Assembly (NCBI GenBank): GCA_951406725.2
Contig: OX597822.1
Span: forward strand, 34,720,001 to 34,784,000
Direction: 5' to 3'
DNA from: Octopus vulgaris
Taxonomy: Eukaryota
DNA: 64,000 nt
In this document: positions 1,012-64,000 of the stretch, piece by piece
How the letters are laid out: every line of letters begins with the position of its first letter
How positions within the stretch are numbered: the stretch's first letter is position 1
Program-made: the position numbers and the translations under genes
Notes under the pieces: generated by a model
What the model was told of the DNA's origin: nothing
Databases searched by the model: none
What the model saw: only the letters and a program-made list of their open reading frames with translations

Positions 1012-1226
1012 AGTTAATCCAAACATGAAAACACAAAGAGAAAACACAACGCGAGGACGTGGAACAAATATAGTATTATTGGACGCTCAGGAAGGAAGGA
1101 AAGAAGGAAGGTTTAACGTTTCGAGCGGAGCTCTTCGTCAGAAACATAGGAAAAGGAAAGACCCAAAGAAGGGAAGACAGAGAAAAAAAATTCCCAACGG
1201 TACACACACGGTCACATTTTGAATGA
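1012..1226 (-). mobile_element. Short HHR-bearing repeat, family A (PLE pLTR/retrozyme-like)
   Basis: Second copy at 46823-47030, inverted partial copy at 151-212; flanked by (TA)n. Confidence 0.75.
1111..1145 (-). ncRNA. Minimal type I hammerhead ribozyme (C3-G8)
   Basis: gttt-CTGACGA-A-GAGC(tcc)GCTC-GAA-ACGT-T-aaac: stem I gttt/aaac, stem II GAGC/GCTC, palindromic ACGT stem III. Confidence 0.75.
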
Positions 1227-2237
1227 ATTATATATATATATATATATATATATATATATATATATATCGGATAGTCAGTAAATCATAAATCCGAAAGAGC
1301 AGCACGGTCTAAGTTATAGAGCAATTAAATAGAGTAATTAGATAGACTTGTGGCCAGTCTACAACTTTACCCAGGGTTTCATGTCCATAAAACGCTTAGT
1401 TTTTGAGCGTTTCTTCAGACTCTAATGGCCGATGGCTTTTAGCCTCTCTTCAGTGAAGAGCGTCTAACTATCTATATCTAATACAAACACACACACATAC
1501 ATATATATACATACATATATATATATATATATATGTGTGTGTGTGTGTGTGTGTGGGTGTGTGTGTGTACGCGTTTTAGTCATTCATCTGTGGCCATGCT
1601 GTAGAAGTTCGTATTCTCTAAAACAGATCCATTAGACGAGCGGTTAGACAGAAGGACGTAAACAGACAAACACTGGTTGTGAGGTGGTGTGTGGACAGAT
1701 AATCACAAAGAAACGGAGACGCACACACACACACACACACACACTCGAACACACACGCACAGACACACAAACGCACTCACGCACACACACACACACCCAC
1801 GCCTCCACACACACACACACCCACGCCTCCACACACACCCACGCCTCCACACACATCCACGCCTCCACACACACAACATAATAATTTCGCAATTCTTATT
1901 TTCAGATTGGTGAATACCATTTCAATTTTTTTCAATAAAACTTTATTAAAGCGTACATTATCTCACATATTCCACAAATTTTTTTCACAGTAAACCATTC
2001 TGGGAGACACTGACCTGAGCATCTTGCCCCAAGGGAAACAATGCAAAAGCCCATACGGCGGCGGGTGTGGTGGTGTGGAGGACATCTGGTATTTTTGTTG
2101 TTGTTGTTGTTGTTTTCTTTCAAAAAGGGCAGATATGACAATATAATCTAGTATACACTAAAGCTGAAAAATAGATTGGTGCGTGACGTCTGAAATGAAG
2201 GTGGACATAGATTGCCGGAGCAAGGCTGATGTTCCGT

Positions 2238-2510
2238 CGACGACGACGATGACGACCACCACCACTACGACGACCACCACGACGACGACGACGACCACCA
2301 CCCACCACCACCACCACCACCACCATCATCACCACCACCACCACCACCACCACCACCACCACCACCACCACCACCACCACCACCACCACCAACAACAACA
2401 ACAACAACAACAACAACAACAACTACTACTACTACTACTACTACTACTACTACTACTACTACTACTACTACTACTACTACTACTACAGCACTAACAACAA
2501 CAGCAACAAT
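2238..2510. repeat. Compound trinucleotide microsatellite (CGA)n(CCA)n(CAA)n(CTA)n
   Basis: Read directly; explains the homopolymer ORFs at 2120-2549. Confidence 0.95.
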
Positions 2511-3220
2511 GAACAGAAACCGTATGATTTGAATGTGAAGATGGCGCAAGAAGCGTATTTTCCGGTGTATAGTTCGAATTACCCGCAGTGAAATCGTGCG
2601 GTTGATGCATATCTACCACCGCTTCAGGCTGAAGAAACCGATGATAAGTAGCAGTCGAATAGCATCTCCATTTTCTCTAAAAAAGATGACCTAGCTTGAC
2701 TCTCACTGTCCCTTTGTATGCGTGGGTGGATATCTCCAAGTAAATGTGTCTTTGTATAGATAGTGTATTCACTTACTATCTCATGTGTGCATACACATAG
2801 AAGTACTTATACATACATACATGCATGCATGCATACATACATACATACATACATACATGTATATATATATATATATATATATGTATGTATATGTACTTAT
2901 GTATATATAGAAACATGCACGCACATCCGCGCACGCGAGCACACACACACACACACACACAACAGAGAGAGTGGGGATATTGGCAGAATTTAACAAACCT
3001 ATATATATATATATACATGTGTTTGTTTTGTACACCGCCTGTCTTCGTCTTTTGTTTTTTTTTTTCGTAAACTCTCCCTATATATATATATATATATATA
3101 TGTGTGTGTGTGTGTGTGTGTGTGTGTGTGTGTGTGTGTGTGTGTGCACTTCGGTAAGACTTATATTGTGTAATATCGTTAAAGAAAGACTACAGGAAAA
3201 TTATCGCGAGGAGTAGAAAA

Positions 3221-3253
3221 TCCAACGTTTCGGACAGCGTTTTTCTTCAGAGA
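3221..3253 (-). ncRNA. Degenerate minimal hammerhead motif
   Basis: tct-CTGAAGA-aaaacgctgtcc-GAA-ACGT-T-gga; stem II largely decayed. Confidence 0.4.
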
Positions 3254-3897
3254 AAACATGGAGAGAAGTTATTGAAAAGCAGCAGAGTTTACAGAGACAA
3301 TGTAAAACTCTGCTGTCACTCATTTACTTCTCCCCTTTCAAAATTTCCCTTCTGAAGGTCAATGCAGGGAACGCTGGTTTTTGAACTCCTCACGTGAAGT
3401 TCACTGTTCTCTTTTCATCGAATTTACTGCACTATAATGAATCCTCAAATCTTTTCTTGGACAATGCGAATTCGTATAACCAGGCAGACATTTATAAACT
3501 GCAAGAAAATTTGCTTAGGTAGCAACATGATACTGTGAGGATTATGATGTGTATCGCAAGAATGGTATAAGTTTAAATCTGATCAAAATCGCTTTAATCT
3601 TGAACTGAAAGTTGCCCTGATCAAAAGACACGTTTGCTCGGAAAGTTTATTGTGAAATGCATCGATCAAAAGTGAAAGTGCGTTTCATGAAATTACAGTA
3701 GCTGAAGTTGGGGCTGAATAGGAATGGTATAGGAAAATATTATGCCTGTTGGCATCAAATCTTTTCTCTTTTCGAGTGAACAACAGAATATATAAGGCTT
3801 GCATATGAAGTGCGATTTTTCAAGTGAGCTAGATATGATTATTGAATGCGAAATATGTTCGATCCTAAGACGAACATACCTCGTTGGATAAGTACAG

Positions 3898-4127
3898 GGC
3901 GGTGACCTGGCAGAAGCGTTAGCGCGCCAGGCGAAATGCTTAGCGGTATTTCGTCTGTCGTTACGTTCTGAGTTCAAATTCCGCCGAGGTCGACTTTGCC
4001 TTTCATCCTTTCAGGGTCGATAAAAAAGTAACAATTTCGCACTGGGGTCGATATAATAGACTTAATCCCTTTGTCTGTCCTTGTTTGTCCCCTCTATGTT
4101 TAGCCCCTTGTGGGTAGTAAAGAAATA
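3898..4127 (+). mobile_element. tRNA-derived SINE family M, full length
   Basis: A-box-like TGGCAGAAGCG, B-box GAGTTCAAATTCC; multiple near-identical copies in the window. Confidence 0.88.
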
Positions 4128-61385: not shown

Positions 61386-62679
61386 AAATAGTAGTGTACT
61401 GAGATGCACAAGTATAACAATGAAAACCAATTGCCAAGTTACTATTACCATATAACGTATCATGTGCCAAGAATCTTTTTTTTTTTTTTGACAAAATATA
61501 TGGTGATGAAAAGGCGATATTAGCTCAATGGTTTATATTTATGTCTACAAGTGACACAATTCCGATATATTTCACTTTAATTGAATTTCCCCAAAGAAAA
61601 ATAGACTACACGATACTTACTGAACTGGTGAAGTTAGAACCCAGTAGAATATATACGCGTTTGGGTGACGTAGAAAATTAAGGGTATTGGCACTATGGTT
61701 GCGATGGCAGTTGTTTATCTGGGGTCAGCTTTGACCAAACAGAGCCTTAGATTAAAATGTTCTCCCTTTAACAAACGCTCTTCTGTGTATTTTACAGACA
61801 AAGGGTATGCCTGAGTATATTATATCATGCGATATGTATTAGGCTTTTATATGACACAGTAGCATATACTCAATGTTTTTATATTTACGAAAATATGGCG
61901 GCTCTTTCTAGCATTGATTTATAAGTTTGCGTTTACAGAGACGAAGGAATACACACACACACATACACACACACACACACACACACACACACACACACAC
62001 ATACACACACACACGAACAGATACTTATATATGAATATACACATATGCGCATTTAAATATATATATACACATGCACAATGCGCATATATATATATATATA
62101 TATATATATATATATATATATATATATATATGTACAGAGAAATAGACAGATAAATATTCATATAAATACATATGCATACGCATCACGCACAAAAACAAAT
62201 AACATCTATAGAGTTTTATTTATGCATGTATCTACGTGTATATCTGGTCAATTTTTGAAACTAGAAGATGAAAAGACCGCCCAAAAACAGAAGCGATAAG
62301 CCGGTGCATTCAAACGAAGAGCCTTGTGAAATATGATACGACCAACTTTACACAGGCAACCCCTTGTCACTCTCACCAAATGCAATGCAATCACCCACGA
62401 TTAACAAACTTGTTGGAAACCCCCAAACAACGACGCTATTGTTTACTATTATGCTATATAAATTACAGACTTGAATTTATAAAAGTTTATGGCATATAAA
62501 TAGCTGTGAGTATAGTCTGAGCTTTGATAGGCAAATGCATTTTGGTGTCACAGCTTCTGAGATATGTCTGTAGTTAAGACACGTGGCTCTGAATTAACTG
62601 ACTTGAACTGGGTGTAAACACACACACACACACACACACACACACACATACATACTATGTATGTGTGGGTATTTTTTAT

Positions 62680-63052
62680 CATTTATTTGTTTCAACCATC
62701 AGATCGCTTCAGAACCGCCTTGGAAGTTTTTGTTCAAATAAATCGACCTCAATACTCTATTTTTGCCTCGTACTTATTCTATCCGTTCTTTTGCCGAACC
62801 TCTAAGTTACGGGAAGGTAAACACATTAACACCGGTTGTTAAGTAGTGGAGGTGGTGGTGGTGATGGTGGATAAACACAGAGAAAATGATACACACATAT
62901 ACATGCACATACACAAACAGACATATATGCAATCCCCTCACAACGACTTGGGCCACCCGAGGAAATTTGAGAAAACACTTGCCGAAGATGCCACGAAGTG
63001 GGATTGAACTCAGAACCATGTAGTTGGAGACAAATTTCTTACCACACACCTC
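62680..63052 (-). mobile_element. Diverged family C SINE
   Basis: ttttgccgaacctctaagttacggg...aagatgccacgaagtgggattgaactcagaaccatg. Confidence 0.72.
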
Positions 63053-63887
63053 ATGTGTATATGCGTCTTTTCATGCAATACAGAAAAGACAGTTGAAACA
63101 TTACTCAATAATGAAAGTGATCGCATTTCATTTAATGCTTCGAAATCTCGCGTCATCCCGTGTAAACTACATGAATACTAATACGCACAATTTATCATTC
63201 AACTCGCGAAATTCTTGGCTTAAGATACATATATATTGCAGCACCACGTTAATAATATAAATCCCAAAGCGGGAAAAAATGGGAAAAGAGGAATAAGGAA
63301 ACAAAAAAGGCAAAAACACCAAGTGCCTCAGTTAGTCGCACAGCACAAGGGTCGACGGAATCTACTGAAGCAAACCAAGAAGCTCGCAGCATTGGCTCTG
63401 ACGATAGCGAGGCTAAGGCGTTGAAAGGGCCAAGTACCCTCGTGGGTATCACCTGACACCTCGGTGAAGCAAGCGGCTAACAATAACAATAACTTGGCCC
63501 TTGGCGACCCATAACCTCCAAACGTTTATATACTTCCATATATATGTGTATGTGCATGTGTATGTATGTGTGTGTACATATATTACACACACACATATAT
63601 ATATATATATATATATATCATGTATGTATATATGTATGCATGATGAATGTATATATACATGTGTGTGTATGTGTGTATGTATGATGTTTATATATATATA
63701 TATATATATATATATATATATATATATATATATATATATATATATATATTACGGAGATGTACTCGCATAGCAAGTAATTTGATCTGAGATCGTGTGCTGA
63801 AACGAAAACAATTGCAGCGTGGGAGGTGTTTATAAGCCATTTAAGAAACACACAAAAGCCGTTCGATTCTCCAACATTTAAGTTTAA

Positions 63888-63937
63888 TTTGTCAAAATAT
63901 TTTCGTCGCTAAACTCCGCGACCTGTTCACTGACAAA
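63888..63937 (-). ncRNA. Hammerhead ribozyme, G3-C8 variant
   Basis: tttgtca-GTGAACA-G-GTCGC(ggagttta)GCGAC-GAA-AATATT-T-tgacaaa; 7-bp stem I, 5-bp stem II, palindromic stem III. Confidence 0.72.
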
Positions 63938-63954
63938 GTCCGTGCTGCACGGAC

Positions 63955-64000
63955 TTTGTCAGTGAACAGGTCGCGGATTTTAGCGACGAAAATATTTTGA
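63955..64000 (+). ncRNA. Hammerhead ribozyme, G3-C8 variant (3' end cut by the window edge)
   Basis: tttgtca-GTGAACA-G-GTCGC(ggatttta)GCGAC-GAA-AATATT-T-tga... Confidence 0.68.

Follow-up and report, generated by a model that had tools for sequence, protein, structure and literature searches.

Type I hammerhead-shaped motifs on PLE-type elements of Octopus vulgaris and the C-G, U-A and G-C states of their 3-8 pair

Hammerhead motifs in the window

The window analysed here is a 64,000-nt stretch of the Octopus vulgaris genome (contig OX597822.1, positions 34,720,001 to 34,784,000), in which repeats were mapped by masked self-BLAST; a repeat finder was swamped by microsatellites. It holds the following features, with repeat families given by letter.

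1111..1146, minus strand: intact minimal hammerhead of family A, C3-G8, one base inserted after A9; in a repeat of about 205 bp (1013-1217)
3218..3255, minus strand: possible relic that keeps the core and a palindromic stem III but has no stem II; inside an inverted repeat with weak homologues
12292..12326, minus strand: family B motif with C3-G8 and the U6 typical of the family
14947..18352: compound inverted-plus-tandem locus of family C, a single locus with four C3-G8 motifs at 15033-15083 (minus), 15580-15630 (minus), 17651-17701 (plus) and 18285-18335 (plus)
18926..20060: family D insertion of retrozyme type, an inverted arm plus 2.3 tandem 355-bp units
19093..19137, minus strand: intact family D hammerhead in the inverted arm, U3-A8
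19451..19495, plus strand: intact family D hammerhead, U3-A8
19806..19850, plus strand: intact family D hammerhead, U3-A8, perfect palindromic stem III
23188..23250, minus strand: possible heavily decayed relic with one weak homologue
24634..24698, plus strand: possible relic in which a C3-G8 core is joined by stems I and III and an imperfect stem II; found once in the stretches compared
27538..27817: head-to-head insertion of family E, motif 27681-27731 (minus), G3U decay
31829..32124: head-to-head insertion of family E, motif 31914-31964 (minus), G5A decay
35629..35663, minus strand: family B motif with C6
40638..40683, plus strand: minimal hammerhead of family I, in which the C3 of the family's C3-G8 pair has decayed to A (C3A)
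46420..46792: head-to-head insertion of a family D sister, only the 3' half of the hammerhead left
46923..46958, minus strand: family A copy with two stem II mismatches; element 46825-47029
56180..56830, plus strand: 5'-truncated copy of a young PLE, without the hammerhead carried by full copies
63746..64000: head-to-head insertion of family E, two intact G3-C8 motifs, 63888-63937 (minus) and 63955 onward (plus)

A type I hammerhead descriptor allowing any N3/N8 matched the window seven times, where 30 local dinucleotide shuffles gave 0.8 matches on average, and all seven matches fall among the 21 sites of a first-pass annotation made from the letters alone. Its count of 21 hammerhead motifs stood for 16. 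Six are intact (1111 of family A; 19093, 19451 and 19806 of family D; 63888 and 63955 of family E), four are decayed copies of real families (46923 of A, 40638 of I, 27681 and 31914 of E), and six have an atypical family core (12292 and 35629 of B; 15033, 15580, 17651 and 18285 of C). The other five, for which homologues were sought within sampled genome stretches, comprise three possible relics (3221, 23188 and 24634) and two unsupported sites. At 3221 and 23188 the local homologues are weak and the stems or core broken; 38221 lacks the core and 41224 has only its 5' half, neither with a homologue in the stretches compared. The insertion at 46420 was missing from that list.

The 16 confirmed motifs derive from 10 insertions, one per 6.4 kb of the window. 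In 700 kb taken at arbitrary round coordinates, a profile search gave 58 matches, or about one per 12 kb when decayed copies are included and families A and B are counted once, so that the earlier density of about one motif per 3 kb was an overcount. In the same 700 kb the descriptor matched 19 intact A6 motifs whose 3-8 pair is Watson-Crick, one per 37 kb. Across the genome there are tens of thousands of short retroelement pieces with the hammerhead shape. Comparison with Rfam, as the first-pass annotation had suggested, gave no hammerhead model match among the 150 listed of 430 window matches or among the seven matches at the family D locus (19040-19900); six other genome loci scored above the RF00163 cut-off, among 73 scored candidates.

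Consensus analysis revealed the type I core (U4 G5 A6 N7, A9, G12 A13 A14, A15.1-U16.1, H17 and a three-stem junction) in families A, D, E and I and their sisters. The consensus 3-8 pair is Watson-Crick in every family, namely C-G in A, B, C and I, U-A in D and G-C in E; the last two, read as real core states in the first-pass annotation, are indeed the family consensus. The 10.1-11.1 pair at the base of stem II is present in A, B, D, E and I and is replaced by U.U in C. The minimal features of PLE hammerheads, one base between 9 and 10.1, G10.1-C11.1 and a palindromic stem III, occur in A, B, E and I. These consensus folds, together with the PLE-type insertion anatomy described below, bear out the reading of the motifs as type I hammerhead folds of PLE-type elements.

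Element families and their insertions

Contrary to the view that all elements here are non-autonomous, families B and C lie at the 3' end of longer elements, PLEs in the case of B, in which endonuclease-like ORFs occur. In family B, PLE endonuclease matches lie 760-1140 nt upstream of the motifs at five loci. Its core had been read as CUGANGA, and the U6 went unmentioned; U occupies position 6 in all but one of 30 genome copies, so the A6 of the type I core is absent and family B, with a 3-bp stem I and about 20,000 anchor matches genome-wide, is a hammerhead variant at most. Among these 30 copies, differences from the column majority amount to 1.7% of cells at positions 3-6 and 1.7% in stem I, and to 60% at N7, 33% at N17 and 15-27% in the flanks; N17 is not G in 29 copies. 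Family C, whose motif has a 6-bp stem I and a 4-bp stem III, forms the 3' terminus of an element that is young (all 40 genome matches scored are 100% identical). Longer copies carry an endonuclease-like ORF about 3.4 kb upstream, which looks like GIY-YIG by eye and in its Atlas clusters, where 31% of members carry GIY-YIG; it had no Pfam match, and pairwise BLAST gave no confirmation. Family C thus likely adjoins a PLE-type RT/GIY-YIG ORF. A hammerhead beside an RT/GIY-YIG ORF was seen for family B (the five loci) and for the young PLE at 56180, full copies of which have an 811-aa RT plus GIY-YIG-like ORF with a U3-A8 minimal hammerhead downstream. No ORF was found beside A, D, E or I at the loci examined, nor an autonomous partner of D or E.

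Families D and E display PLE-type insertion features: target duplication, an inverted 5'-truncated arm, an optional 3' tail and (TA)n or AT-rich targets. The duplications, about 9-13 bp long, were read by eye at no fewer than 9 of 26 loci (D) and 9 of 30 loci (E), and the tails measure about 46 and 55 nt, compared with 30-40 bp in PMC8557442. The 355-nt tandem unit of family D has no long ORF, a canonical hammerhead (6-bp/4-bp), a GC content of 0.44 and a strongly self-paired monomer (folding z -5.3), and it forms a long tandem array at another genome locus. It thereby shows the hallmarks of non-LTR retrozymes, that is, tandem units of about 170-400 nt, a type I hammerhead in each, GC below 45% and self-pairing.

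Family E is a non-coding element of about 215 nt whose fixed 5' end lies about 24 nt ahead of the core; it has U17, a weak A/U stem III (self-duplex -2.2 kcal/mol) and a folding z of -1.2. The insertion at 63746 extends about 90 bases past the window end, and its 63955 motif is completed in the adjoining stretch. No true tandem unit of E, as expected of a retrozyme, was found; a candidate pair 221 bp apart proved to be two separate insertions. The 3' ends fall into two clusters (14 and 29 of 51 matches), and one arm is long and the other short in all 14 head-to-head pairs examined, a pattern which matches the PLE tail (PMC8557442, PMC11167929). None of 19 solo copies begins at the predicted cut, and 11 begin within 7 bases of the element 5' end. 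Two matches at the cut-site column are one locus, with a junction using stem I complementarity. In addition, 40 of 100 listed matches ride inside a larger repeat.

Covariation of the 3-8 pair and its interpretation

The 19 Watson-Crick A6 motifs in the 700 kb, some of which belong to the same insertion, comprise 8 C-G, 10 U-A and 1 G-C, against 0.9 in shuffled sequence, and motifs with a non-paired 3-8 numbered 3 against 2.7. In hand-picked family rows the pair was kept in 16 of 16 cases in one set (8 C-G, 8 U-A) and in 13 of 14 in the other (5 C-G, 4 U-A, 3 G-C, 1 U-G). The proposed covariation of positions 3 and 8 holds between related families, which are separated by double changes at the two positions. 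For family D (U-A), the scaffold with both positions changed has 293 genome matches, 95 of the 100 listed being C-G. Alignments of two C-G families with the D unit span 130-250 nt at 69-76% (E 1e-18 to 1e-22), and the insertion at 46420 resembles, by eye, the C3-G8 family D3. The D tree is compatible with one switch of the pair or with two (p-AU 0.40). The E scaffold, with positions 3, 7 and 8 free, has 6,445 genome matches and is common to C-G and U-A families; the 100 listed were read by eye as 92 G-C, 3 C-G (all of sister family E2) and 5 single changes. Kinship of E with E2-E4 beyond the ribozyme was read by eye from one alignment.

Within families the picture differs. Core and body differ to the same extent in E (0.027 and 0.028) and in D (0.045 and 0.049), and stem II of E is kept worse (0.13). 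Double changes within the E scaffold are few (n=52), with paired and unpaired states mixed, and what was sought there as covariation looks like neutral decay. Decay within families in general looks neutral. Selection for catalysis, as claimed in the first-pass annotation, draws no support from the core of D and E, from the solo E copies, which do not begin at the predicted cut, or from a PLE that inserts in vitro without cleavage (PMC11167929).

We consider it probable that type I hammerhead-shaped motifs reside on PLEs and their short non-coding derivatives, and that the 3-8 pair is C-G, U-A or G-C in related families because their source elements were selected to keep an RNA-cutting fold. 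Sister families differing by a double change at 3 and 8 are natural compensatory mutants, which argues that active-site geometry is under selection in the source elements; they are also ready test pairs. In a putative model, a PLE protein would bind the RNA and nick AT-rich DNA, and reverse transcription would start at one of two internal sites, yielding two 3' ends and head-to-head copies. Cleavage would be slow and would involve a ribozyme dimer formed via the palindromic stem III, probably with a protein assisting; it would trim multimers or read-through transcripts, those of D to 355-nt monomers that would circularise. Inserting copies would come mostly from uncut RNA, and selection would act on a few source elements, leaving dispersed copies to decay neutrally. 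Self-cleavage of these RNAs is predicted from their sequence.

More tentatively, E may be a working natural G3-C8 hammerhead, the first in high copy number. Together with its sister families, which have C-G or U-A, it would make up a natural series that reveals selection of PLE hammerheads for the active conformation. The U6 core of family B would be a second working variant, and standard descriptors would miss a large share of animal ribozymes. Searches fixed on CUGANGA do miss D and E, as anticipated, and B as well; since E, B and all U-A families are invisible to such descriptors, animal ribozyme counts are probably too low.

It is unlikely, yet worth weighing, that the fold is kept as a structural signal for protein binding, RNA stability or template recognition, with E, B and C cutting little or not at all. 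Uncut RNA as the template for E copies would suit this explanation, as would insertion in vitro of a PLE with a dead ribozyme (PMC11167929) and the finding that 8 of 9 Xenopus retrozyme dimers stayed uncut in vitro (10.64898/2026.07.22.740005). The fixed U6 of family B points the same way, given that a position 6 change (A6C) strongly lowers Mg-dependent cutting (PMC7151607, PMC3088659). A mere signal, however, sits poorly with the retention through double changes of a 3-8 pair described as part of the active core (PMC3088659), with the avoidance of G at N17 in family B, and with the canonical, tertiary-contact-type architecture of D.

Less probable still is that the motifs are passive remnants left over from old PLE terminal repeats, the G3-C8 of E having arisen by two chance changes in one source element and then spread. 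Neutral decay inside families is compatible with this, hitch-hiking accounts for part of the spread of E, and G3-C8 was seen in one family only: in a loose genome pattern, the listed matches (first 7.4 Mb of contig 1) were either E or without stem II. But chance would have to supply two pairing-restoring transversions plus compensatory stem II changes on the same scaffold; moreover, paired states stand about 20-fold over background across families, with unpaired ones not above it, and only N7 and N17 vary freely in B. An origin of E as a palindromic DNA transposon (MITE), its likeness to a hammerhead being a chance product of the inverted repeats, is suggested by the palindromic form of all three window copies. 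It was rejected with near certainty, largely because of solo copies: many copies have a single arm, and one arm is enough for the motif to fold. The junctions also vary, the target duplications measure about 9-13 bp and the arms end at two different points.

Relation to known systems

The setting of PLE hammerheads, retrozymes and U3-A8 is known. Cervera and de la Pena (2014, PMC4209133) described minimal hammerheads in PLE terminal repeats which, as here, have a type I fold, one base after A9, G10.1-C11.1 and a palindromic stem III, and occur as many families per genome, with thousands of single truncated copies and opposite-strand pairs. The U-A variant, listed in the first-pass annotation, was already in print there, with about 1,300 matches in Schistosoma mansoni. 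However, their 56 representatives comprise 53 C-G, 2 U-A, 1 U-G and no G-C, all with A6 (supplement Fig. S3), whereas G3-C8 and U6 families reach thousands to tens of thousands of copies in the octopus. PLE hammerheads cut poorly in vitro and are dispensable for insertion (PMC4209133, PMC11167929). If E and B work, they would offer a direct test of why PLEs keep ribozymes that in vitro insertion can dispense with.

The Poseidon PLE of Anolis, PAc (Frangieh et al. 2024, PMC11167929), likewise has two reverse-transcription start sites giving a tail, AT-rich targets and an uncut RNA template, and its hammerhead is partly rescued by a C3G/G8C double mutant. That G3-C8 was engineered in an autonomous element; ours is natural and sits in a short non-coding one. 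Natural U3-A8 covariation and natural A6C have been reported (Perreault et al. 2011, PMC3088659; Naghdi et al. 2020, PMC7151607), but as rare single loci rather than high-copy families, and the accessible portions of these papers name no natural G3-C8 or A6U. Neither core was found in the accessible literature that was searched.

Family D resembles the non-LTR retrozymes of animals (Cervera and de la Pena 2020, PMC7229834; Li et al. 2026 preprint, 10.64898/2026.07.22.740005) in its tandem unit, GC content, canonical type I fold and self-pairing. Mussel retrozyme units measure 350-390 bp, and retrozymes have been proposed to be non-autonomous PLE derivatives (same sources). Unlike them, D combines U3-A8 with homologous C3-G8 sisters and is known here from sequence alone. 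Several D and D2 copies share the loop-2 hexamer of the Schistosoma Sm-alpha hammerhead (loops: PMC2632901) and have a similar stem I internal loop, which suggests a comparable loop-loop contact, although D differs from Sm-alpha in its U3-A8 core and dimer-type stem III.

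Hammerhead motifs in the window and their density

The window is microsatellite-rich (35% GC) and lies in a 2.8-Gb genome of 227 contigs. A type I hammerhead descriptor with positions 3 and 8 left free found seven motifs in it, where 30 local shuffles averaged 0.8, and all seven fall among the 21 sites that the first-pass annotation had listed. The hammerhead feature of the window is real. Site-by-site checking upheld 16 of the 21 sites (six intact, four decayed and six of atypical consensus), leaving three possible relics and two unsupported sites.

Hammerhead sites of the window (start positions)
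1111; 19093, 19451, 19806; 63888, 63955: intact motifs (n = 6), site-by-site check
46923, 40638, 27681, 31914: decayed copies of real families (n = 4), site-by-site check
12292, 35629: atypical-consensus motifs of family B (n = 2), site-by-site check
15033, 15580, 17651, 18285: atypical-consensus motifs of family C (n = 4), site-by-site check
3221, 23188, 24634: possible relics (n = 3), compared only with a local DNA sample
38221, 41224: unsupported (n = 2), compared only with a local DNA sample

The 16 confirmed motifs represent ten insertions, because the D, C and last E loci each contain several motifs. The density had been put at roughly one motif per 3 kb; family profiles run over 700 kb of stretches at arbitrary round coordinates gave 58 matches, about one per 12 kb. 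In the same sample the descriptor found 19 intact motifs with A at position 6 and a paired 3-8 position versus 0.9 in shuffles (C-G 8, U-A 10 and G-C 1, some from one shared insertion), and three unpaired ones versus 2.7. Rfam models did not detect the window motifs: no hammerhead appeared among the 150 window matches listed of 430, nor in the seven rows for 19040-19900. Elsewhere in the genome (stretches L192, L193 and L196), a C3-G8 hammerhead family with a ~60-nt stem II insertion scores above the Rfam cut-off.

The window also holds other elements.

3898-4134, 4858-5569, 10917-11860 and many more: other abundant short interspersed repeats without hammerhead motifs
13112-14038 (-): Tc1-type transposase frame, 308 aa, with Pfam HTH_Tnp_Tc3_2 and DDE_3; inverted repeats at 12724-12945 and 14128-14349
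20475-20858 (-): degenerate GIY-YIG-like frame adjoining the D insertion, without a match in a Pfam search; probably another Penelope-like element (PLE) remnant
32737-33564 (-): 275-aa frame without a match in a Pfam search that resembles the C-terminus of a LINE reverse transcriptase

Anatomy of the hammerhead-bearing insertions

The unit of family D measures 355 bp, and a first-look search of the genome gave 4,550 candidates. A locus contains anywhere from one to many tandem units, and an inverted 5' arm is frequent. Inspection of 26 loci by eye showed target duplications of ~9-13 bp in at least nine, and family D ends at either of two 3' positions ~46 nt apart. Its monomer folds with a z score of -5.3, the ribozyme stems are of canonical size, and stem III takes three forms, each able to pair as a dimer. 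A second U3-A8 retrozyme family, D2, forms ~362-bp tandems (L128 8667-9406, L202, L222 and L257, other stretches of this genome), in which the closing pair of stem II is G-C or A-U depending on the copy.

Family E is ~215 nt long. Upstream of its 5' end, 30 copies picked by their 5' pattern have no common sequence except their own inverted arms. Among 19 solo copies picked irrespective of the 5' end, the start lies within 7 bases of the element's 5' end in 11 and coincides with the predicted cut in none; the E copies were made from an uncut RNA template. The 3' ends form two clusters (14 and 29 of 51 matches), and each of the 14 head-to-head pairs has one long and one short arm. The two 3' ends and the unequal arms are the PLE tail, which arises when reverse transcription starts at either of two sites (PMC8557442, PMC11167929). 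Of the 100 E matches listed, 40 are a single insertion hitch-hiking in a larger repeat, 2 kb or more in length. This repeat (L095, L096, L106, L108 and others, about 755-2220), whose end we take to be Helitron-like, holds an E palindrome plus a short 3' piece resembling D, which has a separate target duplication.

Family B has 19,971 exact anchor matches in the genome; 29 of 30 copies have U at position 6, all four bases occur at N7, and at five loci the motif is preceded, 760-1140 nt upstream, by a match to PLE endonuclease. Family C forms the 3' terminus of a very young element, all 40 scored matches being identical; longer copies of the element contain an endonuclease-like ORF. Atlas clusters point to GIY-YIG for this ORF, and a Pfam search gave no match. 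In stretches L311-L316, ~3.4 kb of microsatellite-rich DNA separates the ORF end from the hammerhead, which makes the 3' region unusually long. A truncated copy at 56268 belongs to a young PLE whose 811-aa ORF includes a reverse transcriptase; in full copies of this PLE a U3-A8 minimal hammerhead follows the ORF. In this family (L247-L250) a second frame of 328-495 aa overlaps the ORF upstream, and 150 of 150 scored matches to its endonuclease part are 99-100% identical.

Covariation of the 3-8 pair and core conservation

The proposed covariation of the 3-8 pair holds between families; within E, the 52 double changes on the scaffold are in mixed states. With positions 3 and 8 both changed, the D scaffold has 293 genome matches, C-G in 95 of the 100 listed, and two C-G families are 69-76% identical to the D unit over 130-250 nt. 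In a tree from DNA downstream of the ribozyme, D (U-A) clusters with the C-G families, apart from D2 (U-A), and a single switch was not rejected (p-AU 0.40). The E scaffold, with 6,445 genome matches, is common to U-A families too; the 100 listed comprise 92 G-C, three C-G (all from the sister family E2) and five single changes. Read by eye, one alignment suggests that E and E2-E4 are related outside the ribozyme. An E-like core with an E2-like short loop 2 at G000:C1:2348329-2348361 (-), on another contig, is a possible intermediate. Hand-picked representative rows have the 3-8 position paired in 16 of 16 and 13 of 14 cases, with compensatory stem II changes, counts that are partly circular because the rows were found by patterns.

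Within families, selection left no sign: the core is no better kept than the body in E (divergence 0.027 versus 0.028; 16 copies plus the reference, after 10 hitch-hiking and four rearranged copies were dropped from 30) or in D (0.045 versus 0.049; 26 copies selected for overall similarity). In family B, which has several subfamilies, positions 3-6 and stem I each differ by 1.7%, against 60% at N7 and 15-27% in the flanks, the pattern expected from selection on source elements.

A putative mechanism and comparison with known hammerheads

The analysis shows the folds, the insertion anatomy, the between-family swaps and the uncut template of E. We propose that a PLE protein would mobilise the hammerhead RNAs by target-primed reverse transcription with two internal starts. 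The ribozymes may cut slowly as dimers, probably aided by protein; cutting would process multimers or read-through transcripts, and the D monomers may circularise. That the fold is retained for binding, not cutting, is unlikely yet deserves weight beside the uncut template of E and the U6 of B; the between-family swaps and the canonical architecture of D speak against it. Passive relics would equally show cores no better kept than bodies, and are quite improbable beside the B pattern and the between-family swaps. A MITE mimic in the case of family E, to which its head-to-head copies might point, is scarcely credible beside the solo copies and the two 3' ends.

Minimal hammerheads of PLEs number thousands per genome and already include a U3-A8 variant (PMC4209133); natural U3-A8 and A6C core variants are also reported (PMC3088659), and animal retrozymes have been defined and tied to PLEs (PMC7229834; 10.64898/2026.07.22.740005; for background see also PMC6765202, PMC6155905, PMC7151607 and PMC3884650). 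In a PLE hammerhead, engineered C3G/G8C partly rescues activity, cutting is protein-assisted, and insertion proceeds without ribozyme cutting (PMC11167929). Our literature search turned up no report of hammerheads in octopus; on native G3-C8 or U6 cores it yielded only an engineered G3-C8, which does not establish absence from print. Judged from sequence, three things appear to be new: a natural G3-C8 family in high copy number that has both C-G and U-A sisters, the C-G/U-A switch between homologous retrozymes and the very large U6 family B; E and B are predicted ribozymes. Several D copies have in loop 2 the same hexamer as the Schistosoma ribozyme (PMC2632901). The 56 representatives of PMC4209133 include neither a G-C core, as in E, nor a U6, as in B.
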